A model generated the notes under the pieces. That model was not told the origin of the DNA and searched no databases. It was given only the letters and a program-made list of their open reading frames with translations. From an uncultured Candidatus Saccharibacteria bacterium (GTDB lineage: Bacteria; Patescibacteriota; Minisyncoccia; Phycocordibacterales; JBBUBG01), in contig CAYJBK010000008.1 of NCBI GenBank assembly GCA_964368365.1, positions 1 to 13,888 of the forward strand: 13,888 nt of DNA, in the 5' to 3' direction. Made by a program: the position numbers and the translations under genes. Below are positions 3 through 13,888 of this stretch, piece after piece. Each line of letters starts with the position of its first letter. Within the stretch, counting starts at the first letter, position 1.

Positions 3-365
3 AACCTCCTTGAGCATCTGTACTCCCCCCATCCATTACTAATAAAAATCAAACGCTACCTTAAGCCGAATGGAATTGTGTTACTCGGCGTTCCCTGCAT
101 CCCCAAGATTGTCTCGCTTCTCCATATACAGAAGTTTCGAGGCAGCCTTTCGCTTGAACATATAAACTTCTTTACGAAAGATACATTAGTAAAAACCACG
201 GAAAGAGCGGGCTGGGAAGTTAAAACGGCCCGAGGCTTTCGTTTTGAAAACAGCATTCTTGACCATCTCCTTGACCCCATTTATCCGCACTTCTACGTTG
301 TGGCAAGCGAAGATACACAGTTCAGATATTCTGATAAAAGAATGAAGGAGCTCGGCGGCTACTGA
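3..365 (+). CDS. C-terminal fragment of a class I SAM-dependent methyltransferase (5' end lies outside the window)
   Basis: The frame of track ORF 78..365 stays open back to the window edge (…NLLEHLYSPHPLLIKIKRYLKPNGIVLLGVPCIPK…). 'R.LKPNG.v.L' is the conserved post-motif-II segment of Rossmann-fold SAM MTases. Stop TGA at 363-365, overlapping the stop of the convergent gene 359..3031 by 7 nt. Confidence 0.5.
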   Translation, partial: NLLEHLYSPHPLLIKIKRYLKPNGIVLLGVPCIPKIVSLLHIQKFRGSLSLEHINFFTKDTLVKTTERAGWEVKTARGFRFENSILDHLLDPIYPHFYVVASEDTQFRYSDKRMKELGGY

Positions 366-3031
366 GCAGTAAGTACAGCCTGGCTTCTGCCAACTTCCTC
401 TGGTCCCCGGTGGCAGTACACCAGCTCAAACTGCTGACCACGAGTCGAAGAAATGGAAACCTGGACTATGCCGTGCTGGCGTCCGTTTACGAAAAACCAT
501 GGATATGGTTCCGACCACGCCTGTCCTTTGGGTACGAGCGCAATCCAATCCCCGTCTTTCACTACACCATCCTGTGCCCACCACATAAGGTTTATAGCCT
601 CCTGTGTCTGGCTAGAGAGAAAAGTACGCCCAGGAGACAACGCCACACTACCGGAAAATGGGGCAACGTGAACTGACGCAAGTCGTCCCGCTTCGTTCTG
701 GGTGTCGTTTCTGTAATACACAAGATCGTACGTACCGGGAATTGCGGGAACCGGAAGCTCTCGTGATCCGCTCTTCGCACCACCGGTATATCCCCAACCA
801 TATCCCTGAGTCCAGTCCTCACCCTGCGGTACAAAAGCCACCCAGTCCTTGGGTGTGGTCTCGATAGGTGTCGACCAGGACACCGCAACAGTTGAAGCTG
901 CGGAAAGCGAGAGAGACGGGAGAGAAACCGTCGTGACCCCCTGAAGCAGAGGAGTAACGGTAATCTTAAGAGACGCAGCGTAGCTCTCTCCACCACTTCC
1001 CGTACATCGGGCAGTAAACGACGTATCCTGCGTGAGGATACCGGTCCATCCTGACCACGTGGGAACCTGGGTTTGCTGACCCGCGCCATACGCACCGCCC
1101 GCAATCGTACAGAATGCAACACCCGGCGCGCTGAGCGAAAGCGTTGAGAACTCTCCGGAAGAAATAGTAGAAGGACTCGCAGAAAGCGTTATGACGCCAG
1201 ACGTACTCGTAAAGGTAGAAGGAGTAGCCGGGGCGAGAGTAGAGGCCGGAGCACTCACTGACCCAGTAGTAGGCACAGTCGTTGCTGGGGGCACCACAGG
1301 TGTTGCTGCCGATGTCGTTGTACTCTGTTGAATACTGCTCCTTCCTGATGCACTCGAGCACGTGCCGCTGTCTCGTAACGGAATACAGAAGGAGCCCGCA
1401 TACCACGAAGCGTTGGAGTCATCCAGGCCCGCATAGTATCCGCGGAGAACGTCTGGCGTGTATCCGAGGGGCGAGGACCACGGTTTTATAAGCGTCGGAT
1501 ATGCGAGCTGTGTGGTATCAGTCACGAGACGAGACAGTGCGAGCGACCGCTTGTCCCACGTAATGCCATCATCGTCACTGGAAAAGATAACCAGCTTTTT
1601 CTTATGAGCTCCCAGGACTCGGAGAACGTTGTCGCTGTCTATCTGAAGCTGCGGATAGCTCCCCAAGCAGCCCAGCGAAAGACGGGTGCTCGTAAAAATT
1701 CCGTCGAGCCCCTCCTTCATAAGATAGTTGCAGTCGTTACCGACACTCGGGCTCTTATGATAGAGGGCGTAAAGTCTCCCCTGCTGGTTAAACGACATAT
1801 CCGATCCGAAAATAAAGGAGCTTACTCCGTCTGCAGCCGGAACCGTATCCGAAAAAACTTTCTGAAATGCACCACCGGAATATCGGTAGACCGCAATGCC
1901 TGTATATTCCGCAGAACTTTTCCAGTCGCGCCGGAGCTCGTTCACCGCCACGTAGGTGGTGCCGTTCGGAGAAATAGCAAACTGCAAATACGCAAGCTTG
2001 GATGTTGTATCAAGCTTGGGAACGAAATCAAACCGGGGCGCCGAGACACCAAGCGAGAATACATGATTATTAAAATCGGCATTGGTAGCCAGGGACCCAA
2101 GCACAGTGCCTGATGCAGGATTTACGGCAATGTTCATATACCCATACGACTCTTGAACCCACTCATTGCTGTTGAGGAATGAGTGTACGAAGTCAACGGA
2201 TCCATCCGAATTCCGTCCGTTGAATACCAGGTGGTAGTACCGGGTATTATCTTGCGCCGTGACGCCACCCCCCGAACACTCATGATTCTGCGGCATACAA
2301 TCAAAAACAATGTGTACATCCCCTCGCGTATCCATCACGATCCCCGGAAGCTGATGCAGGTAGTTAAAAAATCGTCCGGTGAAAACCCAGGAAGATTCTC
2401 CCGTGCGTTTTTTATACACCCATGCGACGCGGTTGTTTACATCGGCCTGAAAACGAGAAAAAACCGCGTACGACCACACAGGACCCACAACCATCTTTGG
2501 CAGGTGTGCATTCCACGTTGACGGTGCGGTAATACTGCGCTCCGCGTCAATCGTAATAATGTCGTCGACTATGGAAAATGCTTGACCAGACTCCGCAGCC
2601 GTCACAACTGGCTGCTGGAAATCCAGAAAAGAAACGAGGGCAGGCTCGTCTCCGTCTGCAGAAGAAGACGCCTCGCCCTCTGCCGTTTCCCGCGCTTCGT
2701 TAAATTCATTTGTCCGCTCACGAGTTCGGGTGTCAAACTCCCCGGTCTCAGCGATACCAAAAAACCGCTGAAGACTTTTTACCGCTTTCGTGGTACGTGA
2801 AAAGTAGTTACCGGTAATGGGTCCGCTGTAGAGCTTTTCATCAGTGAGATATCTTTGCAGTTTCGTAACGTCGGTGCTGTTTTCCAGCCCGTATCTCAAA
2901 TTGCGCGCGAAAGAAACAAAGGCGAGCGAGTATTCTGACGTGGTCTCCACATACCGGGCAAGGCCCACGGGTGCAAAGAGTAGGCCCAGAAGAAAGCTGA
3001 GGGCGAGAAGCTTTCGTTTGGCATCATTCAT
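359..3031 (-). CDS. Large secreted multidomain surface protein: signal peptide, peptidoglycan-binding (PG_binding_1-like) domain, acidic linker, BNR/Asp-box-containing beta-propeller-like region, Ser/Thr/Pro-rich linker and three C-terminal ~95-aa beta-domain repeats
   Basis: 890-aa ORF. N-terminus MNDAKRKLLALSFLLGLLFAPVGLARY is a signal peptide. Residues ~45-100 (VTKLQRYLTDEKLYSGPITGNYFSRTTKAVKSLQRFFGIAETGEFD) match the PG_binding_1 pattern. There is one canonical Asp-box, SSDDDGITW (S-x-D-x-G-x-T-W), at aa ~484-492. Linker aa ~560-612 is STTTSAATPVVPPATTVPTTGSVSAPASTLAPATPSTFTSTS. C-terminal repeats share DW[VI]A[FL]VP.G..W…Y.W (DWVAFVPQGEDWTQGYGW / DWIALVPKGQAWSEPYPW). Confidence 0.75.
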   Translation of the reverse strand: MNDAKRKLLALSFLLGLLFAPVGLARYVETTSEYSLAFVSFARNLRYGLENSTDVTKLQRYLTDEKLYSGPITGNYFSRTTKAVKSLQRFFGIAETGEFDTRTRERTNEFNEARETAEGEASSSADGDEPALVSFLDFQQPVVTAAESGQAFSIVDDIITIDAERSITAPSTWNAHLPKMVVGPVWSYAVFSRFQADVNNRVAWVYKKRTGESSWVFTGRFFNYLHQLPGIVMDTRGDVHIVFDCMPQNHECSGGGVTAQDNTRYYHLVFNGRNSDGSVDFVHSFLNSNEWVQESYGYMNIAVNPASGTVLGSLATNADFNNHVFSLGVSAPRFDFVPKLDTTSKLAYLQFAISPNGTTYVAVNELRRDWKSSAEYTGIAVYRYSGGAFQKVFSDTVPAADGVSSFIFGSDMSFNQQGRLYALYHKSPSVGNDCNYLMKEGLDGIFTSTRLSLGCLGSYPQLQIDSDNVLRVLGAHKKKLVIFSSDDDGITWDKRSLALSRLVTDTTQLAYPTLIKPWSSPLGYTPDVLRGYYAGLDDSNASWYAGSFCIPLRDSGTCSSASGRSSIQQSTTTSAATPVVPPATTVPTTGSVSAPASTLAPATPSTFTSTSGVITLSASPSTISSGEFSTLSLSAPGVAFCTIAGGAYGAGQQTQVPTWSGWTGILTQDTSFTARCTGSGGESYAASLKITVTPLLQGVTTVSLPSLSLSAASTVAVSWSTPIETTPKDWVAFVPQGEDWTQGYGWGYTGGAKSGSRELPVPAIPGTYDLVYYRNDTQNEAGRLASVHVAPFSGSVALSPGRTFLSSQTQEAINLMWWAQDGVVKDGDWIALVPKGQAWSEPYPWFFVNGRQHGIVQVSISSTRGQQFELVYCHRGPEEVGRSQAVLTAQ

Positions 3032-3926: not shown

Positions 3927-3999
3927 CCGCCCGTAGCTCAGTTGGTAGAGCAGCTCGCTCTTAACGAGATGGTCGGGGGTTCAATTCCCTCCGGGCGGA
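3927..3999 (+). tRNA. tRNA-Lys (anticodon CTT)
   Basis: Hand-folded cloverleaf. Acceptor CCGCCCG/CGGGCGG (7 bp). T8A9, D-arm GCTC-AGTTGGTA-GAGC. Anticodon stem GCTCG/CGAGA (4 bp plus a 27-43 mismatch), loop CTCTTAA (U33, anticodon CTT, A37). Variable loop TGGTC. T-arm GGGGG-TTCAATT-CCCTC. Discriminator A. CCA not encoded. Near-identical in layout to E. coli tRNA-Lys. Confidence 0.85.
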
Positions 4000-4039
4000 C
4001 AAGATTAGGCAAGGAAACGTGGTATTATAACTACCACTT

Positions 4040-4121
4040 GGGCAGGTGGCGTAACTGGTAGCCGCGTGGGCCTTAGAAGCCCATGCCGAAAGGCGTGGAG
4101 GTTCAAATCCTCTCCTGCCCA
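4040..4121 (+). tRNA. tRNA-Leu (anticodon TAG), class II with long variable arm
   Basis: Acceptor GGGCAGG/CCTGCCC. D-arm GCG-TAACTGGTAGC-CGC. Anticodon stem TGGGC/GCCCA with loop CTTAGAA (anticodon TAG). Long variable arm TGCCGAAAGGCGT (GCC/GGC stem, GAAA loop). T-arm GGAGG-TTCAAAT-CCTCT. Discriminator A. Confidence 0.85.
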
Positions 4122-4184
4122 TAAAGAACTGACAAATTCACAAAATACCCTTATTTTACGAGCCTTATTTGCTCATCCTGGGAC

Positions 4185-4213: not shown

Positions 4214-4341
4214 AGCAGAGGATACGAAAAGGCAGAATTGTAGCCTTTGGTGAGACCTTTAACACCACCTTAAGTATAGAAATTATGCGCTCGACATGTC
4301 GTCGGGCGTACTCACGTTTCCCGTTCACTGTTCCCCTACCC

Positions 4342-4366
4342 GTCTTGCTTCGGCAAGACAAAGGAG
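4342..4366 (+). promoter_or_regulatory. Leader stem-loop (7-bp stem, UUCG tetraloop) immediately 5' of the Shine-Dalgarno AAGGAG
   Basis: GTCTTGC-TTCG-GCAAGAC at ~4342-4359, followed directly by aAAGGAG (4361-4366) and ATG at 4374. Not followed by a U-run, so it is not a terminator. Likely an mRNA 5' structural or stability element. Confidence 0.4.
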
Positions 4367-4373
4367 ATCTGCA

Positions 4374-5516
4374 ATGTCTACTTTCGCCTGGGTCGGTCTC
4401 GCCTTTCTCGCGTTCAACATCGGACTCATTGTCTTGATGTGGAAGCGACCGGGAACGACCGACCCCTGGTCCGCCGGCGTTGGCCGCTTCCTTTCCCTAA
4501 GGAGCGGATTCTACGCTGGCTATGTGATCAACCTCACACTGCTCCTCCTGGAGTTCATCCTGTGCATGATCTTCCCGACCTCTCATCCGTGGTTCCTCTT
4601 TGCCGGCGTCGCTATCATCTCGATTGCGTACTTCGGACTCTGGGGCATCACAACCATCGAAACGGGCATCGAAGGAGCCCTGGTGTTCTTGTTCGCCTGG
4701 GTCATGGACCCAAGCCCACCACCACCTCCTGCTGCCCAGGTGCTCAAGAGAGGAAAGGGTGTCTACTGGACACTGCCGCCTCCGTTCGGCGGATTCGAAA
4801 CGATTGAGATCCGGGAACGGGTCTCACGGTTCGGATTCGTGGACGAGAAGACAGCCGCAGTCGGGTTTAAGATCTACACCAATGATGGAATCGTCCACCA
4901 GGTGTTCGGGTCCATAACCTGGTTCATCGAGGACATCGCCCATGTGCTGACTCACAGCACGAAGCCGATCCACGAAGTGCTGAAAAACCTGGCACAAGAA
5001 GAGATCAAGCAGGATGCGTCAGGCGTAGCGTCAGATGTGTTCTGCAATCAGATCAATACTGTTGCCAACCAGACGGCGGAGAGAATCAAGGCAGCAATGG
5101 CCGCGGTCGCAGCTGCTCACGGCGTACGTGTCGAACTCGTGCAGATCACGCAAGTCGATCCGCCCAAGTCCGTCGTCGACGCCAAGGCCAAGGTTGCCCA
5201 GGAGAGGGCAGAGAAGGAAGCCGAGGAAATCGAGATCGCGCACGTTACAAAAATGGTTCAAGAGCTTCGTACGAAAAACAAGAAGCTCTCCCACGCCGAC
5301 GCACTCAGAGCTGTCATGGCTGAGCGCGGCAAGCTGGTGTGGAAGTACGACGATTACCCTACCGACTACAGCCTCGACATCAAGGGGCTGCCGGACGGGC
5401 TGACAAGCATTAACGTCGTAGGCGCCCCGGGCACTCGTGGGCCCGGTTCCGGCGGAAAAAAGAAAAACCCGAATAGCGGAGGAGGCAGCAGTGGCAACCC
5501 CGGCAACACCCCCTAG
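4374..5516 (+). CDS. Polytopic membrane protein with C-terminal SPFH/band-7 (HflK/C-, stomatin-, flotillin-like) domain
   Basis: Track ORF 4296..5516. The start is chosen at ATG 4374 (MSTFAWVGL…) because of AAGGAG 8 nt upstream. Three to four predicted TM helices (FAWVGLAFLAFNIGLIVLMW; YAGYVINLTLLLLEFILCMIF; WFLFAGVAIISIAYFGLWGI; GALVFLFAWVM), then PSPPPPPAAQ. The C-terminal segment GVRVELVQITQVDPPKSVVDAKAKVAQERAEKEAEEIEIAHV is the characteristic SPFH 'v.i.dv.pp..v..a...aereaea' helix region. Gly/Ser-rich disordered tail. GC-rich coding sequence. Confidence 0.6.
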   Translation: MSTFAWVGLAFLAFNIGLIVLMWKRPGTTDPWSAGVGRFLSLRSGFYAGYVINLTLLLLEFILCMIFPTSHPWFLFAGVAIISIAYFGLWGITTIETGIEGALVFLFAWVMDPSPPPPPAAQVLKRGKGVYWTLPPPFGGFETIEIRERVSRFGFVDEKTAAVGFKIYTNDGIVHQVFGSITWFIEDIAHVLTHSTKPIHEVLKNLAQEEIKQDASGVASDVFCNQINTVANQTAERIKAAMAAVAAAHGVRVELVQITQVDPPKSVVDAKAKVAQERAEKEAEEIEIAHVTKMVQELRTKNKKLSHADALRAVMAERGKLVWKYDDYPTDYSLDIKGLPDGLTSINVVGAPGTRGPGSGGKKKNPNSGGGSSGNPGNTP

Positions 5517-6132: not shown

Positions 6133-6181
6133 AGAGCCCCGCACGTCGTCTCACGACACGTGACGGGGCTCTCGAATTTTT
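6133..6181. terminator. Bidirectional rho-independent terminator between convergent transcription units
   Basis: AGAGCCCCG…(cacgtcgtctcacgacacgtga)…CGGGGCTCT long GC-rich hairpin with an internal GTCGT/ACGAC sub-stem. Followed by TTTTTAT on the plus strand and preceded by GAAAAG (a U-run for the minus-strand transcript). Lies between the stop at 6105 (+) and the stop at 6200 (-). Confidence 0.6.
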
Positions 6182-6199: not shown

Positions 6200-6490
6200 C
6201 TACTGCAATGACTTTATCGACTCGATGATGAAGTTGGTGAGACCGAAAGCAGATACCATAATGAAGAGTCCTATAAGACCGTAGATGATATGCTGCTTCC
6301 CAACATCTCGAGTCTTGTCGTCTGCTTGAATAAACTGAATCACTCCCCAGAGAAAGTAGAGGAACGCGACCCCAAAGAGAAGTCCGATGATGGGATTCAC
6401 CACATTCACCTTAATCCTGTCGAGGAGAGGCAGAGTTGACTCTCCTGCCGCGTACGCCTCCGTTGCAAGCAGTGACAAGATCCCGTTCAT
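6200..6490 (-). CDS. Small membrane protein, paralog 1 of a tandem family with a two-helix hairpin core (TrbC/VirB2-like pilin architecture)
   Basis: 96 aa. Core PIIGLLFGVAFLYFLWGVIQFIQADDKTRDVGKQHIIYGLIGLFIMVSAFGL aligns with the four upstream paralogs (hydrophobic helix, short charged loop, hydrophobic helix). The N-terminus is only weakly signal-like (no basic residues). Starts 9 nt after the paralog 2 stop. Confidence 0.65.
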   Translation of the reverse strand: MNGILSLLATEAYAAGESTLPLLDRIKVNVVNPIIGLLFGVAFLYFLWGVIQFIQADDKTRDVGKQHIIYGLIGLFIMVSAFGLTNFIIESIKSLQ

Positions 6491-6499
6491 CCAGAAAAA

Positions 6500-6946
6500 C
6501 TAGTTCCCAAATGCACCACTCCCACGAGGGTTGTTGCCTGGTATAAGACGAGGGTTCTGCTGTTGGATAGCTTTCGGTATGATCGATTCAACATTTCCAA
6601 TGCTATCCTGTCCAACCCCGAACGTGTTTCCAATTACACGAACAAGACCCCACACGGACACCATCACAAAAAGTGCGATAATACCCTGGATCATGCGCTC
6701 GCGTCCCTCTGTGCGAGCCTCCGTATCCTTTGCCTTAAATATGTATTCTGCCAAGCCATAGAAGAAGTATAGGAGAGCGAGGACAAGAAGAATCGGGATA
6801 CCCAGATCCATCAAATTCTTAATCGTAAGAACAATCGTTGTGACTGTTGTATTCTGAGAAGTACCTTGTGCAAACGCTGCGAGCGGGAGTGCGAGAGCAG
6901 CTGCTCCCACAATCGACGCACGAACTGTTCTGAGAACCTTTTTCAT
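6500..6946 (-). CDS. Secreted small membrane protein, paralog 2 (TrbC/VirB2-like pilin architecture)
   Basis: 148 aa. Signal peptide MKKVLRTVRASIVGAAALALPLAAFA|QG (AxA site). Core LLVLALLYFFYGLAEYIFKAKDTEARTEGRERMIQGIIALFVMVSVWGLVRVIGNTF. Gly/Pro/Asn-rich C-terminal tail. A ~90-nt AT-rich spacer upstream may carry an internal promoter. Confidence 0.7.
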   Translation of the reverse strand: MKKVLRTVRASIVGAAALALPLAAFAQGTSQNTTVTTIVLTIKNLMDLGIPILLVLALLYFFYGLAEYIFKAKDTEARTEGRERMIQGIIALFVMVSVWGLVRVIGNTFGVGQDSIGNVESIIPKAIQQQNPRLIPGNNPRGSGAFGN

Positions 6947-7036
6947 GATCGTAGCTTTTTATATTAAAAACTTATTTTTTTATAGTGACCTTATTCTACC
7001 CCCTAGCACACTACCTGTCTACGAGTTATCCACCAA

Positions 7037-7420
7037 CTACCGAAGCTTTGGGTACGCAGGGAGCACAACATCTGTCGAAGGATCTAGCTGGAACGTATTG
7101 GTGAGTACTCCAACGAGGCCCCAAACAGAGAGCATTACAAAAAGACCAACGAGACCGTAGACGATCTTATTTCGCGCCTCGTCACGAGTCTTGTCGTCAG
7201 CTCGGATGAACGTAATCGCGCCGTAGAGAAAGTATATGAGTGCGGCAACAAAGAGAAGGGGCACCACGGACTGAAAGGTACAGAGTAGAAAGTTAACAAG
7301 CGCCGACAAGCTTCTTACGGGCGCACCGCACCCCGACCCCGCGCCTTGGGCAAAAACCCAGAGCGGAGTAGCCGCAAGCAGCAGCGAATAAAAGCCTACT
7401 TGTATGCGTTTTTTCATCAT
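7037..7420 (-). CDS. Secreted small membrane protein, paralog 3 (TrbC/VirB2-like pilin architecture)
   Basis: 127 aa. Signal peptide MMKKRIQVGFYSLLLAATPLWVFA|QG. Cys pair (GCGAP…LLC). Core FVAALIYFLYGAITFIRADDKTRDEARNKIVYGLVGLFVMLSVWGLVGVLTNTF, the closest match to paralogs 1 and 2. Start overlaps the paralog 4 stop (ATGA). Confidence 0.7.
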   Translation of the reverse strand: MMKKRIQVGFYSLLLAATPLWVFAQGAGSGCGAPVRSLSALVNFLLCTFQSVVPLLFVAALIYFLYGAITFIRADDKTRDEARNKIVYGLVGLFVMLSVWGLVGVLTNTFQLDPSTDVVLPAYPKLR

Positions 7421-7848
7421 GATGGTTTTGTAATTGCGTTTATTGTGCCTTGTATTACTTCCGCGAGAACACCGGAACCCAAGAGAACCGCCGCTCCAAT
7501 CACGGTGTATTTGAAAATCTGATGTGCGGAATCAATCGCTTTCTGGTCACCCAGGGCTGTCACATACTTAAAGCCCGCGTAGAGAAATGCGAGCACTATA
7601 ACCACAACTCCAATCTGCATCAAAGCATCTACAATCTTCTTGGGAAGCGACCGGATATCGAGGGAAGATCCGGGACCGTCACAGTTGAGCGGGTCGCACA
7701 GAGTGGGCTGGCCACCTCCCGGGGGCTCGGTACCTCCGGGCTTTTTCGCGCCCTGAGCGAACGAAACGAGTGGCAAAACAAATAACGCAATAATAAAAGT
7801 AAACACTGCCGCCTTCTTTAAATACCCTGGCACTGGAATACTCATCAT
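7417..7848 (-). CDS. Secreted small membrane protein, paralog 4 (TrbC/VirB2-like pilin architecture)
   Basis: 143 aa. Signal peptide MMSIPVPGYLKKAAVFTFIIALFVLPLVSFA|QG. Gly/Pro-rich segment with a Cys pair (LCDPLNCDG). Core VVVIVLAFLYAGFKYVTALGDQKAIDSAHQIFKYTVIGAAVLLGSGVLAEVIQG. Start overlaps the paralog 5 stop (ATGA). Confidence 0.7.
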   Translation of the reverse strand: MMSIPVPGYLKKAAVFTFIIALFVLPLVSFAQGAKKPGGTEPPGGGQPTLCDPLNCDGPGSSLDIRSLPKKIVDALMQIGVVVIVLAFLYAGFKYVTALGDQKAIDSAHQIFKYTVIGAAVLLGSGVLAEVIQGTINAITKPS

Positions 7849-8234
7849 GATCGTATAAATGGATTAAAGCTGTCGTGGACAAAGAAACTAAATATGGTAC
7901 TCACGATAAACCATGCGAGGAAAGCCAGGAAGACCCCTTTTACCGTTGAGGTAACCATGCCGTGGACCTTGGTCGCCTCGCTCTCGTTGCCAAAGGCTAT
8001 CAAGTAGCGAAAGCCGGCAATAGCAAAGGAAATTGTGGCGAGTGGAATAATCAGCCAAAAAAGCGAGAACTTTATGATCCTGTCTGCGAGTACGAGAAAG
8101 TCATTGAACGTGCAGAGTGGCTGACCCGCATTACCACACGGCACAAGTGGCTCCGGTGCGCCATCGGCCGCAAACACTATCATCGGGAGCATGGCGAGAC
8201 CAAGCACAAATCCAAACCTTGGAAGAAGTTTCAT
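7845..8234 (-). CDS. Secreted small membrane protein, paralog 5 (TrbC/VirB2-like pilin architecture)
   Basis: Track ORF 7845..8321, trimmed to the internal ATG at 8234 (MKLLPRFGFVLGLAMLPMIVFA|ADG), which gives a proper signal peptide and removes the overlap with the upstream gene. Cys pair (PCGNAGQPLC). Core LIIPLATISFAIAGFRYLIAFGNESEATKVHGMVTSTVKGVFLAFLAWFIVSTIF. 1-nt gap from the stop of the SBP gene. Confidence 0.65.
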   Translation of the reverse strand: MKLLPRFGFVLGLAMLPMIVFAADGAPEPLVPCGNAGQPLCTFNDFLVLADRIIKFSLFWLIIPLATISFAIAGFRYLIAFGNESEATKVHGMVTSTVKGVFLAFLAWFIVSTIFSFFVHDSFNPFIRS

Positions 8235-8235
8235 A

Positions 8236-9540
8236 CTAATTGCCGAGGAGTGCCCGAATGCGTCGCGATGCACGCAAGACCGCGTCACTCTCTGTCGTCT
8301 TGTTAATGATAACAGACTCAATCATCTCAGCAAAGACGGCATCTGTCTCTTTAGGATCTGGGTCATACCATCCTCTGCTTATAATTGCAGAGCGGTTGAA
8401 GATATCGAGCACAGGATCAGCTTCGGGCAACGAGAGTACGCTCCGCGAAGCAGAGGGCAGGCCCACTGTCTTTGACACAGCAGCACTACTCTCGGGGCTC
8501 GTCAGATCCAGCGCAGCGTTGAAGGCGGTCTCAGGATTCTGCGAGGCGCGAAGCACACCCACACCATACATCTGGGCGAAAGTGACCTTCCTCACCGCCT
8601 TATCTCGCTGAGGCATCTGGGCTACATCAAAGTTGAGATGGGGATTCTTGCGCACAATATCGAAATAGTCGCTCGCACGCCCAAAGTAAACCGCGAGCGT
8701 ACCCGCCTCAAACGCAGCCTTAGAATTTGAGAGTGCACTGTTCCAAGAGTATGAAGTCTTGGAGGGATTCGCAAACTCCGTATAGAACCGAACCGCCGCA
8801 GATGCGCTGGAAGGCACATCGCCGACGCTCTGACCCAGGAGGGATACAATCCTACCCGTACTGTCGAGTCCTGCTATCGAGTCCCCCACCTGCATAATGA
8901 GTGTACTCAGGATATCTTTACTCCACTCTGTATTTCGAACACCTCCCAAAGCTACCGCACTCTGGGTAATGTTGCCGCGCGAATCACGCACCGTAAGCTT
9001 CTCCGGTAAAGCCGGAAACTGCTCCCACACTTTAGGCGGCTCCACAATCCCCGCAGAGGAGAAAAGGTCTCTGTTCCAATACATAATGAGTGGATCGACG
9101 TAGAGCGGCAACGCGGTCATGCCATCGGGGGCCAGATACAGCTCCCCCTCGTCGATGTAAGTATCCTTAAAGGATCGGAGCGGCAACGATTCGTACGGCA
9201 AGGAGTACAGCTTATCGCCTTGGGCAATAAGGAGATCGTGTGGAAAAAGTATCATGTCTGGACCGCGACCCGAGGCGAGTTCTGAGATCAGTGTGCTCTC
9301 GAGGGACTCTGCTGGAATTTCTTCGTAGACAAGAGAATATTCAGCCTCGTGGGTCGCATTAAACTCCACAACAAAAGGACCCATGGAGCTACTCGGCAGC
9401 GAGCCCCATAGTACCACCTCTCCGCCAAACTGCTGTGCGTCTGGACGGCCAGGAAGAGGTATATATCCCGAGAAGGCAAGGACCGCGAGAATCCCGAGAG
9501 CGCCGAAAATAATAAGAAGAAATATTTGAAAAGTACTCAT
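8236..9540 (-). CDS. Membrane-anchored extracellular solute-binding protein homolog (ABC-transporter SBP family 1-like), with no permease or ATPase genes adjacent
   Basis: 434 aa. N-terminal TM anchor (FQIFLLIIFGALGILAVLAF). Segments GEVVLWGSLP…, DMILFPHDLL… and especially LYVDPLIMYWNRDLFSSAGIVEPPKVWEQF match the SBP_bac_1 signature (…lyYNkdlf..aGl.pPkTWdE…). Start is 2 nt after the MTase stop. Stop is 1 nt before paralog 5. Confidence 0.55.
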   Translation of the reverse strand: MSTFQIFLLIIFGALGILAVLAFSGYIPLPGRPDAQQFGGEVVLWGSLPSSSMGPFVVEFNATHEAEYSLVYEEIPAESLESTLISELASGRGPDMILFPHDLLIAQGDKLYSLPYESLPLRSFKDTYIDEGELYLAPDGMTALPLYVDPLIMYWNRDLFSSAGIVEPPKVWEQFPALPEKLTVRDSRGNITQSAVALGGVRNTEWSKDILSTLIMQVGDSIAGLDSTGRIVSLLGQSVGDVPSSASAAVRFYTEFANPSKTSYSWNSALSNSKAAFEAGTLAVYFGRASDYFDIVRKNPHLNFDVAQMPQRDKAVRKVTFAQMYGVGVLRASQNPETAFNAALDLTSPESSAAVSKTVGLPSASRSVLSLPEADPVLDIFNRSAIISRGWYDPDPKETDAVFAEMIESVIINKTTESDAVLRASRRIRALLGN

Positions 9541-9542
9541 GG

Positions 9543-10115
9543 CTATGTCTTCATATAGAGCAGTCCGTAATGGTGCGCACCCGCGAAGAATGCGTCCTTA
9601 TACAAGAAGCCGACCTTGCCGAGAAGCTCTTTGGCTGTGCCTTCTGAGACCACCTGGTCTGGATGTGGCCCCATGCCCGCGAAGGAGGCGGACCAGTCGA
9701 CGACGAGGATCAGAGCACCGGGCTTCAAAACTCTCGCCAGTTCAAGAAGGAAATGCTCCTTATGCTCGGACTGAAAAAGAACATTGGCGAGCACAGCCGC
9801 GTCGAGCGAAGAATCGACAAGCTTCGTACCCCCCAGTGTGTCGAGGTTGCACCACACGACCTCAAGCTGCCCCACCTTTTTAGCTTCCGCCTCTTTCTTG
9901 AGGCGCGAGAGGAGATCCTTCTGAACGTCCAGGGCGTATACGCGGCCAGATGGACCAACGGCCGCGGCCAGCGCAAACGCGTAGGCACCTGTTCCAGTGC
10001 CAAAATCAGCAACATGCATCCCCTCCGTAAGATGCAGGCGCCGAACATTATCCTCCGGATTCGAGAATTCCATGTGCTTTAGTATACCACCTCCAGCCAC
10101 ATCCTCTGTGGACAT
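9543..10115 (-). CDS. Small class I SAM-dependent methyltransferase (first gene of the minus-strand operon)
   Basis: Track ORF 9543..10409, trimmed to ATG 10115 (MSTEDVAGGG…). The longer N-terminal extension runs through the REP palindrome and the start of the divergent gene, and is low-complexity. Motif I VADFGTGTGAYAFALA, acidic post-I ALDVQKD, motif II/III region LKPGALILVVDW. An alternative start at ATG 10073 (MEFSNPEDN…) is possible. Confidence 0.7.
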   Translation of the reverse strand: MSTEDVAGGGILKHMEFSNPEDNVRRLHLTEGMHVADFGTGTGAYAFALAAAVGPSGRVYALDVQKDLLSRLKKEAEAKKVGQLEVVWCNLDTLGGTKLVDSSLDAAVLANVLFQSEHKEHFLLELARVLKPGALILVVDWSASFAGMGPHPDQVVSEGTAKELLGKVGFLYKDAFFAGAHHYGLLYMKT

Positions 10116-10154: not shown

Positions 10155-10796
10155 ATGGGAATGAGAAAAATAGTGCTTGCTGACGACGAGTATTATCACA
10201 TCTATAATCAGGGGGTAGACAAACGCGACGTGTTTTTGGACGAAGAAGACTACAAACGACTCCTGAAAAGCATTCGGGTATTTAATCAAGAAGAGATCAG
10301 TGGAAGTATTCATGAGTTTTCTTTTGGAAGCAAAAAGAAAACTCCTCCGCTCGTAGACATAATCGCCTACTGTCTTAATCCCAATCATTATCATTTTATC
10401 CTTAAACAAAATACGGAGCGGGGCATCGAGAAGTTTATGCAGCGCATCGGCACAGGGTATTCAAACTATTTTAATAAAAAATACCAGAGAAAAGGACCCC
10501 TTTTCCAGGGAAAGTTCAAATCAAAACATGTCGACGGAAACGATTACCTTGTCTACTTGTCCGCCTATGTAAACCTCAACAACGAAATTCATGGACTTGG
10601 GAGCCTGGCTCCCAAGTCCAGTTTCTCTGAATACATTTCTCCTCAGACAAAGGATGCGGTCTGCGCAAAAGAGATTATTTTAGGTCAGTTTAAAAACCAT
10701 GGGGAGTACGCACTGTTTGCGCGAGATTCAATTTTAGAAACCGCACAGCGTCGCAGACAAGACGCATTATTAGATACAATCTTAGGGGATATTTAG
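10155..10796 (+). CDS. HuH Y1 transposase of the IS200/RAYT (REP-associated tyrosine transposase) type
   Basis: 213 aa. HuH motif in LNPNHYHFILK. C-terminal catalytic-Tyr region GNDYLVYLSAYVNLNNEIHG parallels E. coli RayT DYIYINPVKHG (Y-[IV]-N-[PL]-x-x-x-HG). Flanked on both sides by the same palindrome in inverted orientation. Confidence 0.65.
   Translation: MGMRKIVLADDEYYHIYNQGVDKRDVFLDEEDYKRLLKSIRVFNQEEISGSIHEFSFGSKKKTPPLVDIIAYCLNPNHYHFILKQNTERGIEKFMQRIGTGYSNYFNKKYQRKGPLFQGKFKSKHVDGNDYLVYLSAYVNLNNEIHGLGSLAPKSSFSEYISPQTKDAVCAKEIILGQFKNHGEYALFARDSILETAQRRRQDALLDTILGDI
10593..10619. repeat. REP-like perfect palindrome, copy 2 (GGACTTGGGAGCC-T-GGCTCCCAAGTCC), lying in-frame inside the RAYT coding sequence
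   Basis: 13-bp arms, 27 nt in total, equal to exactly nine in-frame codons encoding GLGSLAPKS. It immediately follows the conserved HG of the catalytic region. Confidence 0.85.
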
Positions 10797-10808
10797 CGAC
10801 TTGCTTGA

Positions 10809-10831
10809 ACTTGGGAGCCAGGCTCCCAAGT
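10809..10831. repeat. REP-like perfect palindrome, copy 3 (ACTTGGGAGCC-A-GGCTCCCAAGT), in inverted orientation relative to copy 1
   Basis: 11-bp arms. The central base is A instead of T, so it is the reverse complement of copies 1 and 2. Begins 13 nt after the RAYT stop. Confidence 0.85.
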
Positions 10832-10861
10832 GAGGAGGGGCTGGTGTATACTGGCGCTACG

Positions 10862-11524
10862 ATGCGCTCCGTCGTCTTAGTTCTTACACTTACAGCAATC
10901 GCGCTTCTTATATTTAAAGTAAACTTCATGCACACACCGCAGACATTTATTCCTATCGGCAACTCATATTCTATCGGCGAAGGTGTGAGCGAATCGGAGC
11001 GATGGCCGAATTTGCTTGCGAATCATATGACGCAAGAAGGAAAAGCCACCAAACTTCTCGCGAATCCGGGGCGCACGGGATGGACCACGCGCCAGGCACT
11101 GGAGAATGAACTGCCGCTCGTCGAAAAAGAACGTCCAAGTCTCATCACCATCCTTATTGGCGTGAACGATCTCGTGCAGGGTGTGTCCGTAGAAGAATTT
11201 GAGAGAAATCTCCGCGAGATCCTAGACCGGAGCGAGAAAGCGCTTCAGAAGCCTGGAAAAATAATCTTGATCACGATCCCTGACTTTACACTCACCCCAT
11301 CGGGAAAATCCTTTGGAGACCCGGCAACGATTCAGAAAAAGCTCGCCGAGTTTAATGCCGTGATTAAAAAAGAGGCAGCAGATAAAGGTCTCCCGCTTGC
11401 GGATATATATGAAGTAAGCGTCCAACTCGGGAGCGACTCGGCATACGTAGCCAAAGACGGGCTGCACCCTTCCCCCACTGCGTATATTGAATGGGAAAAG
11501 GAAATCTACTCGGCTATCAAATAG
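10862..11524 (+). CDS. SGNH/GDSL-family hydrolase (lipase/esterase-like), N-terminally membrane-anchored or secreted
   Basis: Track ORF 10805..11524 begins with a TTG inside the palindrome. It is trimmed to ATG 10862 (MRSVVLVLTLTAIALLIF…, a signal/anchor). Block I GNSYSIGEG, block II ANPGRTGW, block III ILIGVNDL (GxND), block V DGLHPS (DxxH). Confidence 0.65.
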   Translation: MRSVVLVLTLTAIALLIFKVNFMHTPQTFIPIGNSYSIGEGVSESERWPNLLANHMTQEGKATKLLANPGRTGWTTRQALENELPLVEKERPSLITILIGVNDLVQGVSVEEFERNLREILDRSEKALQKPGKIILITIPDFTLTPSGKSFGDPATIQKKLAEFNAVIKKEAADKGLPLADIYEVSVQLGSDSAYVAKDGLHPSPTAYIEWEKEIYSAIK

Positions 11525-11533
11525 ATCCGGATA

Positions 11534-13888
11534 CTAGAGACACGTCAAGCTCGCGATCGAATCCCCTTCGCGGAGTTTCATGATGCGCACGCCTTGCGTT
11601 GAACGGCCGAGGGACGGAATGGTCGCGAGGTCTGTGCGGATCACCTGCGCGTTCTTGGAGATCGCCACAAGTTCTACCTCTGTGCTTACGACCTTCCCTA
11701 CGATAACCTTGCCGGTCTTTGGGGTCACGTTTGCCGTCTTGATGCCACTACCGCCGCGCTTCTGAATCTTATACTCTGCGATCTTAGTTTTCTTGCCGTA
11801 TCCGTTGTGACTCATAATGAGAAACTGCGCATCTTTCTCCTCCTTATTCACGATATCTGCTCCCACAAGCGCATCGTTCTTGCCGAGCTTCATGGCACGC
11901 ACACCCATGGCCGTCCGACCCATTTCCCGGATATCAGATTCTTTAAATCGAATAGACTGACCGCCCGCGGTCGCCAAGATCACCGAACCACCCTTCTCGA
12001 CAAAGCGCGCTGCCAAAAGTTCGTCACCGGCATCGAGCGTGATAGCGATAAGTCCGCTGCGGCGCACATCAGTAAAACTCTCCGCTGAAACTTTCTTTGC
12101 GACGCCATTCTTTGTGACCATCAGAAGTGAGAGGCCACTGCCCTTCACCTTCTTGGGCATCGCGAGCACAGAGGTAACCCGCTCGCCTGCGGAAAGCGAA
12201 AGATAGTTCATGATCGACTTACCGCGTGTGGCACGCTTACCCTCAGGCAGCTCAAACATCTTTATCTGATACGCCTTTCCGCGGTCACTGAAGAAGAGCA
12301 CGTCGTTATGCGTATTTGCCGTGAGAAATATAGTAATGAAATCTTCTTCTTTGGTATCGAGATCGATGACACCCACGCCACCACGCTTCTGTGAGCGATA
12401 TTCGGTTGGGTCTGTGCGCTTTACATATCCGCCAGAAGTGAGGACCAAAATACTCTCCTTTTCTGGAATGAGATCCTCTACGTTGATCTCCTTGGCGCCG
12501 GAGCGAACGATCTTTGTGCGGCGATCATCTCCGTATTTCTCCGCAATCTCCTCAGATTCTTTCTTGATCGCCGCGAGCATAAGCTTGGGGTCTCCTAAGA
12601 ATTTCTTGAGGTCTTTGATGAGCGCAAGCTTCTCCTTAAGTTCGTCCTCAACCTTCTGACGCTCAAGACCAGCAAGACGCTGGAGGCGCATTTCAAGGAT
12701 CGCGGTAGCCTGGAGCTCCGAGAGCTTGAACCGCTTCATCAAATTCGCATGCGCCTCCTCAGTCGTCTCTGCCTTTCGGATCACTTTGATCACTTCGTCG
12801 ATATGATCAAGTGCGATCTTCAAACCTTCAAGAATATGTGCGCGCTCCTCTGCCTTACGAAGATCAAACTGTGCCCGGCGCTTCACCACATCTCTCCTGT
12901 GCAGAATAAACTCTTCGAGAACCGACTTCAGCGAGAGTACACGCGGCACGCCGCCCACAAGGGCAAGCATGTTGTAGTTGAAAACGACCTCAAGGTCCGA
13001 ATGCTTATAGAGAAAGTTCAGCGTCTGCTGCGGATGGATCCCCTGCTTGAGATCGATCACAACGCGAATGTCATCCGTGGACTCATCGCGGATATCTTTG
13101 ATACCCTCAAGCTTCTTCTCCTTCACGAGATCCGCGATCTTGATCAAAAGTTCTGACTTGTTCACCTGGTATGGGATAGAGGTGATCACGATCTGGAACA
13201 TGCCCGCCTTGGTTTCCGTGATCTCTGCCTCTCCGCGAGTAAGCACACCACCGCGGCCCGTGCCGTAGGCATGCGCAATATCTTTTTCATTAAAAGCGAG
13301 TCCGCCTGTTGGGAAGTCGGGACCCTTCACGAATTTCAAAAGATCCTCGGTGGTGGCCTTCGGCTCATCGATAAGATGCACCACAGCGCCCATCACCTCA
13401 CGCAGATTGTGTGGGGGGATCTTGGTAGCCATGCCCACAGCAATGCCGAGAGTACCATTCAAAAGTAGGTTTGGAACCGCGGAAGGAAAAACAACAGGCT
13501 CCTTCTTCGTGTTGTCGTAGTTGGGAACAAAGTCTACGGTCTCTTTATCAAGATCGCGGATCAGCTCGTCGGCGATCTTGCTCATCTTTACCTCGGTATA
13601 CCTGTAGGCAGCGGCTGAGTCGCCGTCGATGCTACCAAAATTTCCCTGCCCGATCGCCAAGGGGTACCGCATATAGAATCCCTGCGCCATCTTTACCATG
13701 GCATCGTACACAGAGGTGTCGCCGTGCGGATGCCAGCTACCGAGCACATCACCCACCACAGTTGCAGACTTCTTGAACTTAGCGCTCGAGTTCAAGCCGA
13801 CGTTATTCATCGCATAGAGAATACGGAGGTGCACCGGCTTCAGACCGTCGCGCAAATCCGGCAAAGCGCGAGACACAAAGACAGACAT
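11534..13888 (-). CDS. gyrA: DNA gyrase subunit A (N-terminal ~30 codons lie beyond the right edge of the window)
   Basis: The frame is open to the window edge. [20 protein letters not shown]… and the QRDR/active-site block [41 protein letters not shown] (catalytic Tyr in RYTE) are nearly identical to the canonical GyrA N-terminal domain. The C-terminal beta-pinwheel begins with the GyrA-box-like QKRGGVG, which favours GyrA over ParC. Confidence 0.9.

Follow-up and report, generated by a model that had tools for sequence, protein, structure and literature searches.

Tandem arrays of genes encoding VirB2-like pilins of type IV secretion systems (T4SSs) are a known feature of Patescibacteria (the candidate phyla radiation, CPR), and here we describe a seven-gene operon carrying such an array in a contig of 13,888 nt (CAYJBK010000008.1, hereafter the window). 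A recent survey counted 441 arrays in 383 assemblies, with 2-11 tandem pilins and an average paralogue identity of 25%, an array being defined as at least two PF18895/PF04956 genes of low paralogue identity, in tandem or with one non-pilin gene between them (Quinonero-Coronel et al. 2025, PMC12102498). According to the same survey, in which Paceibacteria are among the most represented classes, homologues of VirB4, TrsD, VirB3 and VirB6 are widespread in Patescibacteria, dnaA and dnaN frequently occur close to virB4 in most classes, Paceibacteria included, and a pilin gene lies near virB4 in only 1,135 of the 1,948 assemblies that have both VirB2-like pilins and VirB4 (PMC12102498). The T4SS cluster of Ca. 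Southlakia epibionticum ML1 includes six tandem PF18895 genes (SEML1_0014-0019), all individually essential by transposon sequencing (Tn-seq) (Wang et al. 2023, PMC10633639). The Patescibacteria systems have been reviewed as the only monoderm T4SSs with VirB2-like pilins (2025 review, PMC12857230), and when Paceibacteria grow on methanogens, T4SS pilins rank among their five signal-peptide genes with the highest expression (PMC10936435).

The operon in the window encodes a class I S-adenosylmethionine (SAM)-dependent methyltransferase (MTase), a MalE-like solute-binding protein (SBP) and five small pilin-like proteins, named here P1 to P5. The original prediction, made from the sequence of the window, had considered this arrangement not to be a described system. 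Tandem VirB2-like arrays as such are published (PMC12102498, PMC10633639, PMC12857230), which limits the novelty, whereas the coupling to an SBP and an MTase and the fixed five-paralogue form seem to be undescribed; the published studies of Patescibacteria T4SSs and pilins (PMC12102498, PMC10633639, PMC12857230, PMC10936435) contain no mention of the SBP or of this MTase together with pilins. The Paceibacteria-wide form, coupled to the SBP and MTase, built of five orthogroups and with two promoters, thus appears to be an undescribed variant of the known Patescibacterial array.

The operon and its five pilin-like proteins

Seven open reading frames (ORFs) lie on the minus strand of the window from 10115 to 6200, and both these ORFs and their junctions, with 1-2-nt gaps or ATGA overlaps and a 90-nt AT-rich spacer, are as originally claimed:

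MTase, 9543..10115, minus strand: class I SAM-dependent methyltransferase, cytoplasmic, gene 1 of the operon, with a likely start at ATG 10073
SBP, 8236..9540, minus strand: MalE-like (family 1) solute-binding protein of 434 aa with an N-terminal transmembrane (TM) helix
P1, 7845..8234, minus strand: pilin-like protein of 129 aa with a predicted signal peptide, two conserved Cys and a predicted two-helix hairpin (PF18895, 29.3 bits)
P2, 7417..7848, minus strand: pilin-like protein of 143 aa (PF18895, 30.4 bits)
P3, 7037..7420, minus strand: pilin-like protein of 127 aa (PF18895, 34.3 bits)
P3-P4 spacer, 6947..7036, minus strand: 90 nt, AT-rich, with an internal promoter-like site
P4, 6500..6946, minus strand: pilin-like protein of 148 aa, the first after the putative internal promoter (PF18895, 37.9 bits)
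P5, 6200..6490, minus strand: pilin-like protein of 96 aa without a canonical signal peptide (PF18895, 37.5 bits)
Terminator hairpin, 6133..6172, minus strand: intrinsic terminator at the operon end
gyrA, 11534..13888, minus strand: Pfam DNA_topoisoIV and DNA_gyraseA_C, 5' end cut at the window edge, listed for context only

The MTase stop at 9543 and the SBP ATG at 9540 leave a gap of 2 nt, the SBP stop at 8236 and the P1 ATG at 8234 a gap of 1 nt, the P1/P2 and P2/P3 pairs overlap through ATGA (7848-7845 and 7420-7417, respectively), and 9 nt separate the end of P4 (6500) from the ATG of P5 (6490). The operon is co-directional, tightly packed and terminator-bounded. The hairpin claimed after P5 proved to be real: its 40 GC-rich nucleotides fold with a free energy of -31.1 kcal/mol (z = -4.37), which 0/200 shuffles equalled, and are followed by CCTTTTC. 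A terminator was found in the operon at this end only and, being sited between convergent genes, it may serve both directions. A search of the operon and the P3-P4 spacer against Rfam returned no match. The contig belongs to an ultrasmall bacterium and was recovered from groundwater of Hainich, in a 0.1-µm-filtered metagenome (ENA ERZ1292623). Because the GC content of the operon is similar to that of its flanks and the locus sits within a conserved housekeeping backbone, an origin by horizontal transfer or from a mobile element is unsupported; the locus is a chromosomal operon of Paceibacteria (CPR/Patescibacteria), vertically inherited.

All five small proteins exceed the Pfam gathering cutoff for PF18895 (T4SS_pilin), with 29.3-37.9 bits against a cutoff of 26.6, indicating that their likeness to this family is not due to chance. 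The TrbC/VirB2 profile (PF04956) is matched by P2 alone, at 24.3 bits, just below the cutoff of 27.9. When 80 array members from relatives were searched, PF18895 was found in 78 and TrbC in 21 (E<=0.01, best 5e-9), while DctQ, a small transporter subunit, gave a weak match in 3/80; a sub-threshold likeness to the 'pilin-like conjugal transfer protein' of a Mycoplasma integrative and conjugative element was obtained with NCBIfam. The original assignment to TrbC/VirB2-like pilins, possibly of the T4SS_pilin family, is borne out by the PF18895 results. As to the holins, bacteriocins and small membrane proteins of phages, the former two proposed at that time as possible alternatives, P1-P5 had no match to such families in Pfam at E<=1 and none in PHROGs, and this identity was rejected.

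Pairwise identity among P1-P5 is 13-37%, and alignments reveal a common helix-loop-helix core of two hydrophobic blocks with a loop between them, the shared core with a charged loop that had been predicted. With five tandem genes of this divergence, the window array falls under the published definition of a Patescibacterial VirB2 array (PMC12102498). An AlphaFold (AF2) model of P3, with a predicted local distance difference test score (pLDDT) of 76, gives the signal helix (residues 3-24) and the helical hairpin that had been expected, the hairpin helices (38-73 and 79-109) being joined by a charged loop of 5 residues. Judged from model and alignments, each small protein is a predicted two-helix membrane hairpin with a short charged loop. 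Signal-peptide features occur in 80-98% of P1-P4 orthologues, and P1-P4 are predicted to carry Sec-type signal peptides. P5 keeps the hairpin and, like most of its orthologues, has no canonical signal peptide; the median length in its orthogroup is 90 aa, and only 56% of the members have K/R in the first 8 residues. A signal peptide had been claimed for all five proteins, which holds for P1-P4 and not for the 96-aa P5.

Position-specific paralogues and the P3-P4 spacer

The pilin cores of 43 five-member arrays were used for an orthology test, in which 202 of 215 cores had their best cross-genome match at the corresponding array position. Scores averaged 58.8 bits between cores sharing a position in different genomes, in contrast to 37.3 bits between cores at different positions of one genome. 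Every array position is distinguished by motifs, a length and a signal-peptide status of its own: the P1 orthogroup is marked by a conserved Cys pair (C...C), P2 by NPL and GFxFVxAxG, P3 and P4 by an SVWGLV motif, and the short P5 (about 90 aa) by ILNPII. Since nearly all best matches are same-position matches, P1-P5 are fixed paralogues and not a variation array, and the sequence comparison identifies them as ancient, non-interchangeable and position-fixed. The pilin set of Paceibacteria is a fixed five-member ensemble rather than a variable repertoire, and the result corrects the current 'antigenic/host-range variation' reading for arrays of this type.

Array size was counted in 58 non-redundant loci having at least 3.5 kb downstream, and ranged from 4 to 7 members: five in 35 loci, six in 11, seven in 6 and fewer in 6, so that 52/58 loci have arrays of at least five. 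Some P1 orthologues have a large N-terminal extension, giving proteins of 722 aa in locus L091 (11842-14010), where the hairpin occupies only the far C-terminus (residues 641-704), and of 541 aa in locus L042 (4722-6347). The large N-terminal parts of these two proteins had no Pfam match, and an extended P1 would fit a surface-exposed, adhesin-bearing subunit.

Among 41 five-pilin loci, the P3-P4 junction is the sole large one, with a median of 105 nt, whereas the gaps at SBP-P1, P1-P2, P2-P3 and P4-P5 have medians of 6-13 nt. The P3-P4 spacers are AT-rich and enriched in -10 elements, GTATAAT being present in 12 of the 41 against 0.43 expected. A promoter scan of the window spacer identified the promoter-like site TAGACA-17-TAGAAT at 7021→6993 (TAGACA at about 7021-7016, TAGAAT at 6998-6993). 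These data point to a conserved internal promoter preceding P4-P5, predicted to boost their expression.

Two further motifs were observed in these spacers. A DnaA-box-like sequence, TTATCCACC (consensus TTATCCACA), lies at 7026-7034 of the window on the plus strand, inverted relative to the operon and upstream of the putative internal promoter. The motif ATCC[AC]CA occurs in 15/41 spacers (L016, L025, L027, L028, L032, L052, L062, L065, L068, L069, L072, L075, L076, L082 and L087) located between -73 and -107 relative to the start of P4 in 14 of them and at -53 in L075, which is about 11-fold over the locus-wide density. In the window alone its 4 matches against 2.2 expected are not significant, and it is enriched in the comparative set only. 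It may be a site for DnaA or another regulator tying pilin expression to replication status. The second motif, AAGGTCAC, is found at about 6985-6992 on the minus strand of the window, directly past the -10 element; GGTCG/AGTCG(Y)TTTAA...TTATTAG recurs right after the -10 in many P3-P4 spacers (L008, L010, L013, L024, L025, L026, L027, L032, L063, L067 and L081), the k-mers TTATTAG and ATTAGTA being present in 8-9 of the 41 spacers against about 0.25 expected, and has no match in Rfam. This motif may represent a conserved transcription start or an element of the 5' untranslated region.

Solute-binding protein, methyltransferase and gene neighbourhood

The second gene of the operon encodes a protein matching the Pfam families SBP_bac_8 (65.6 bits) and SBP_bac_1 (48.2 bits). 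In its AF2 model (pLDDT 90.7) a helix (residues 3-24) is connected through a flexible linker to a two-lobe domain of MalE-like fold, for which the top Foldseek hits were oligosaccharide SBPs and MalE (TM-score 0.6-0.74, E about 1e-23), and hhalign aligned it with E. coli MalE over the whole length at 95% probability. D65, E111 and W340 of MalE align with D102, D149 and W391 of the SBP, and the remaining contact residues differ. Comparison of 24 sequences at 40-65% identity revealed 34 invariant positions, with W, Y, D, N or Q at many of these, and the N-terminal hydrophobic helix is conserved as strongly as the globular part. Given this hydrophobic helix and the absence of a lipobox cysteine, the N-terminus is an anchor or an uncleaved signal; of the 'lipo/anchor' protein proposed at first, the membrane anchor (or uncleaved signal) is therefore retained and the lipoprotein rejected. 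Neither a BPD_transp_1-type permease nor an importer ATPase was found in the window or in any related locus, in agreement with the prediction of an SBP without a permease partner. In one relative, L092, an exporter-type fused ATP-binding cassette (ABC) gene (ABC_membrane + ABC_tran, 581 aa, 8198-9943) is inserted between gyrA and the MTase gene, and this is not an importer partner for the SBP.

The MTase matches class I SAM families of Pfam, namely Methyltransf_31/25/11 (50-59 bits) and Ubie_methyltran, and SAM motif I (DxGxGxG) is present as VADFGTGTG, consistent with the soluble SAM-type enzyme originally proposed. Its 445 homologues are about 175 aa long, and because of this length ATG 10073 (about 176 aa) is favoured as the start over 10115; thus, for the gene first placed at 10115→9543, the gene itself and the stop stand, and the start is uncertain. 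The ENA-called ORF, of 281/288 aa and reaching 10409, is probably an over-extension across a divergent Y1_Tnp gene, as the opposite-strand insertion makes a long antisense ORF. This insertion, at 10155-11524 on the plus strand between gyrA and the MTase gene, comprises a gene resembling Y1_Tnp/REP-associated tyrosine transposases (213 aa, sub-threshold) and a GDSL hydrolase gene; unlike in the window, gyrA and the MTase gene are adjacent in most relatives. The closest PDB entry to the MTase is 3dh0, of unknown function. UbiE/MenG, ArsM, PCMT and RNA methyltransferases were rejected as assignments, the best score being 49 bits against NCBIfam equivalog cutoffs of 150-575.

Hundreds of SBP orthologues at 40-47% identity were found, all from CPR/Parcubacteria/Paceibacteria sources, and a scan of one genome per GTDB species yielded at least 583 species-level genomes with a stretch encoding the SBP. 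From these relatives 89 loci were analysed with our own ORF calls and an iteratively built pilin hidden Markov model (HMM), and of about 85 related loci nearly all showed the chain gyrA → MTase → SBP → pilins. Between MTase and SBP the median gap is 10 nt (76 loci), with overlap in 12 and more than 100 nt in 13; junctions of at most 10 nt, or overlapping, as found at MTase-SBP and SBP-P1 in most species, are typical of translational coupling. gyrA ends within 300 nt of the MTase gene in 51/65 loci. As the first loci had been chosen through the SBP, synteny was retested through the MTase, and the same operon was found in 4/4 long contigs chosen from MTase homologues. Synteny of the SBP and MTase genes with the array, on which the original prediction had been made to depend, is thus very strongly conserved whichever of the two genes is used to select the loci.

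The operon is flanked on its MTase side by lepB, pth, a gene for an S1 protein, Lactamase_B_3, a small-protein gene and gyrA, and past the array by rbfA, infB and a convergent SPFH/Band_7 gene. The annotation table of Ca. Yanofskyibacterium gives the order gyrA-MTase-four pilins-tRNA-Leu(tag), with no SBP (PMC10936435). Downstream of the window operon there are genes for tRNA-Lys(ctt) (3927-4000, plus strand) and tRNA-Leu(tag) (4039-4122, plus strand), and since tRNA-Leu(tag) directly follows the Ca. Yanofskyibacterium MTase-pilin array, a very old synteny is hinted at (PMC10936435). The SPFH/Band_7 gene, encoding a membrane-scaffold protein (window 4296-5516, plus strand), is usually convergent and just downstream of the array, and its cluster was seen in at least 21 loci. 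Further examples are L002 (8298-9212, here between gyrA and the MTase gene), L006 (15559-16689), L013 (13906-15063), L016 (8158-9183) and L078 (8022-9677); it could be a functional neighbour, providing a membrane microdomain for assembly, or mere synteny.

Other genes of the region may be mentioned separately. An 890-aa secreted protein with an N-terminal PG_binding_1 domain and a long Ser/Thr/Pro-rich linker is encoded at 359-3031 on the minus strand of the window, and falls into one class with the strongly expressed PGBD proteins that have been suggested to mediate host attachment of Paceibacteria (PMC10936435). In one locus only, L050, a 548-aa SLT_3 lysozyme-like protein (6281-7924, minus strand) is encoded just downstream of a seven-pilin array and is a possible VirB1 analogue. 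The gyrA of a Lloydbacteria relative (L006/L007, 5481-9152; 1223 aa) contains an intein (Intein_splicing) in the topoisomerase domain.

Proposed role and comparison with known systems

The operon probably builds part of a surface apparatus used on hosts, and the earlier idea of a 'surface filament / host-interaction module', itself a hypothesis, agrees with the literature. Our mechanistic model, in which the operon supplies pilins to a distal T4SS and the SBP is a tethered receptor or accessory, is favoured with moderate confidence as a whole, most doubt attaching to the roles of the SBP and MTase and to the existence of a filament. The hairpins of P1-P5 would be inserted in the membrane and then used by a T4SS encoded elsewhere on the chromosome, of the Patescibacteria type (monoderm, MPF-FATA-like), whose VirB4, TrsD, VirB3 and VirB6 homologues would assemble a heteromeric pilus or conduit at the site of host contact. 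P4-P5, under their own putative promoter, would be the abundant (major) subunits, and P1-P3, translated together with the SBP, would be made in few copies and serve in initiation or at the tip or base. The tethered SBP could act as an accessory receptor for a host-derived glycan or metabolite, in adhesion, cargo capture or triggering, and the MTase could modify a component of the system, either the cytoplasmic loop of a pilin or a lipid or other small molecule.

Several observations weigh against this model. No VirB4, VirB6, VirB3 or VirD4 was identified in the window, as originally stated, nor within 10 kb on either side in about 85 related loci, a search that left three large neighbouring ORFs without a Pfam match. 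The Ca. Yanofskyibacterium array without an SBP indicates that at least one lineage can do without this protein, and guilt by association is weakened because the whole neighbourhood is syntenic housekeeping DNA. To our knowledge, SBPs are not among the known parts of T4SSs; we likewise know of no pilus of PF18895 proteins that has ever been observed, the name of the family being a computational annotation, and no PF18895 filament is reported in the Patescibacteria T4SS papers cited here. The fold cannot prove homology to VirB2, as a signal helix followed by a bare helical hairpin is not discriminating, and Foldseek of the pilin model against PDB returned nothing significant (best E about 1). 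In a search of PDB sequences with a profile of the 80 array members the matches were weak, with the phage coat protein G8P (8ixk) at E 0.0073 and pKM101 TraM at E 0.011, the latter mainly through the signal peptide, and both are treated as non-evidence. With the fold search uninformative and the matches to solved pilins marginal, membership of the pilin family rests on the HMMs. Finally, the roles given to the MTase, the SBP and the major and minor subunits are proposals. The assemblies studied here were also sought in the supplements of the T4SS survey (PMC12102498) for a VirB4 in the same genome, with no occurrences; in Ca. Yanofskyibacterium a VirB4/TraC gene is, by gene numbering, 11 genes from the array (PMC10936435).

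The alternative that survives best, although we consider it unlikely, is that the pilin array alone is functional, the SBP serving an ABC importer encoded elsewhere and the MTase being a housekeeping enzyme, both unrelated to the pilins, kept adjacent by frozen gene order and co-transcribed for economy. The region from lepB, pth, S1, Lactamase_B_3 and gyrA to rbfA and infB is indeed syntenic across Paceibacteria, the Ca. Yanofskyibacterium MTase-pilin array lacks an SBP, the Southlakia T4SS/pilin cluster lacks both SBP and MTase, and 13/76 loci have the MTase-SBP gap of more than 100 nt noted above. On the other hand, in most species the MTase-SBP and SBP-P1 junctions are of at most 10 nt or overlapping despite protein identities of 40-47%, no gene for a CUT1 permease or ATPase adjoins the SBP gene in any locus, the TM helix of the SBP is conserved to the same degree as the globular domain, which is uncommon for a helix that serves only as an anchor, and in Ca. 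Yanofskyibacterium the MTase is still joined to the pilins where the SBP is absent.

It is also conceivable, with a lower probability, that no pilus is made and that the five hairpins join the tethered SBP in an invariant hetero-oligomeric complex of the membrane (5 x 2 = 10 helices). Such a complex might be, for instance, a new type of uptake channel or receptor that depends on the SBP, descends from T4SS pilins and works without VirB4. The constant order of five fixed paralogues that do not replace one another is in line with it, SBPs generally bind to permeases in the membrane, the TM helix of the SBP is conserved, T4SS genes are absent nearby, and the occasional weak matches to small transporter subunits (DctQ, 3/80) point in the same direction. 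However, the members score at or above the PF18895 cutoff and none reaches that of a transporter family, an energising module is absent, and a strict 1:1 complex would be a misfit because, with the conserved internal promoter, expression should differ between P4-P5 and P1-P3. The large extracellular extensions of P1 in some species, the variation of the arrays between 4 and 7 members and the position of the homologous Saccharibacteria arrays inside the T4SS cluster also argue against it.

The published suggestion of a variation device, with interchangeable paralogues that broaden host range or evade recognition as proposed for Bartonella/Anaplasma VirB2, fits the strong divergence of the paralogues (13-37% identity, as in the arrays of PMC12102498) and the varying array size (4 to 7), yet is very improbable and largely refuted for this operon by the same-position best matches (202/215; 58.8 vs 37.3 bits), by the conserved motifs, length and signal-peptide status proper to each position, by the co-transcription of all genes, which are not switched, and by the individual essentiality of the six Southlakia pilins.

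Returning to the model of pilins supplied to a distal T4SS, a more far-reaching form of it, which we regard as a speculative prospect of low probability, is a class-wide apparatus in which a five-subunit VirB2-like filament or conduit is coupled at its base or tip, through the TM helix, to a MalE-like receptor, and in which the subunits or a bound lipid are methylated. If true, this would be an SBP-coupled T4SS pilus that captures or imports host glycans or metabolites rather than exporting DNA or proteins. In a related reading, the SBP and the five pilin-derived hairpins may constitute a new kind of SBP-dependent membrane transporter. Patescibacteria account for much of bacterial diversity and rely on host cells, which makes it of interest how they take what they need. 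The pilin set, with its predicted two-tier expression architecture and hard-wired to a tethered receptor of the sugar-binding type and to a methyltransferase, offers as handles the ligand of the SBP, the methylation of pilins or lipids and the distinction of major and minor subunits, by which the T4SS pilus of CPR bacteria may be approached as an adhesion device or an uptake conduit.

The closest described systems are the Southlakia and surveyed Patescibacterial arrays, with which the operon shares the PF18895 family, the tandem divergent paralogues with signal peptides and the chromosomal, relaxase-free location in CPR bacteria; non-redundancy is suggested in both, by essentiality in Southlakia and by position-specific orthology in the operon. 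The Southlakia array lies inside the T4SS cluster, by VirB6, VirB3 and VirB4, with neither SBP nor MTase there, whereas no T4SS gene could be identified within 10 kb of the array described here, which lies downstream of gyrA, is coupled to the MTase and SBP and is split by the putative internal promoter.

The classical conjugative pilins VirB2 (Agrobacterium Ti), TrbC (RP4), TraA (F) and TraM (pKM101) are proteins in which a leader peptide precedes two hydrophobic helices linked by a short charged loop. They are encoded by single genes in virB/tra operons of diderms, adjacent VirB4/VirB6 build them into pili that contain lipid, and cyclisation or acetylation occurs in some. P1-P5 resemble them as small proteins with a leader and a hairpin, with weak profile similarity (TrbC for P2), and differ from them in being five paralogues of a monoderm-type CPR cell, with no adjacent machinery and with a filament that is putative.

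With the MalE/CUT1 oligosaccharide SBPs (E. coli MalE, CpMnBP1 4r9f/4r9g, 7bvt) the operon SBP has in common the two-lobe fold over the full length and some ligand-contact positions, at an identity of 15-20% to solved SBPs. Unlike these proteins it is encoded within a pilin operon, without MalF/MalG/MalK-type genes nearby, and has a conserved N-terminal TM helix and not a lipobox or cleaved signal. PrgZ and TraC are pheromone-binding SBPs encoded on the enterococcal conjugative plasmids pCF10 and pAD1, PrgZ being an OppA-like (family 5) lipoprotein that feeds the peptide signal to the chromosomal Opp permease. They are likewise orphan SBPs encoded with T4SS/conjugation genes in the absence of their own permease, but the operon SBP differs from PrgZ in being of MalE-like family 1 and having a TM helix.

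A last parallel is given by the minor-pilin/adhesin priming modules of type IV pili, such as FimU-PilVWXE and PilY1; type IV pilins are processed by PilD and N-methylated on the N-terminal helix. This is a functional analogy only, the protein family and the assembly machine being unrelated: in both cases several non-interchangeable pilins would be co-expressed with a non-pilin surface protein, apart from the highly expressed major pilin.

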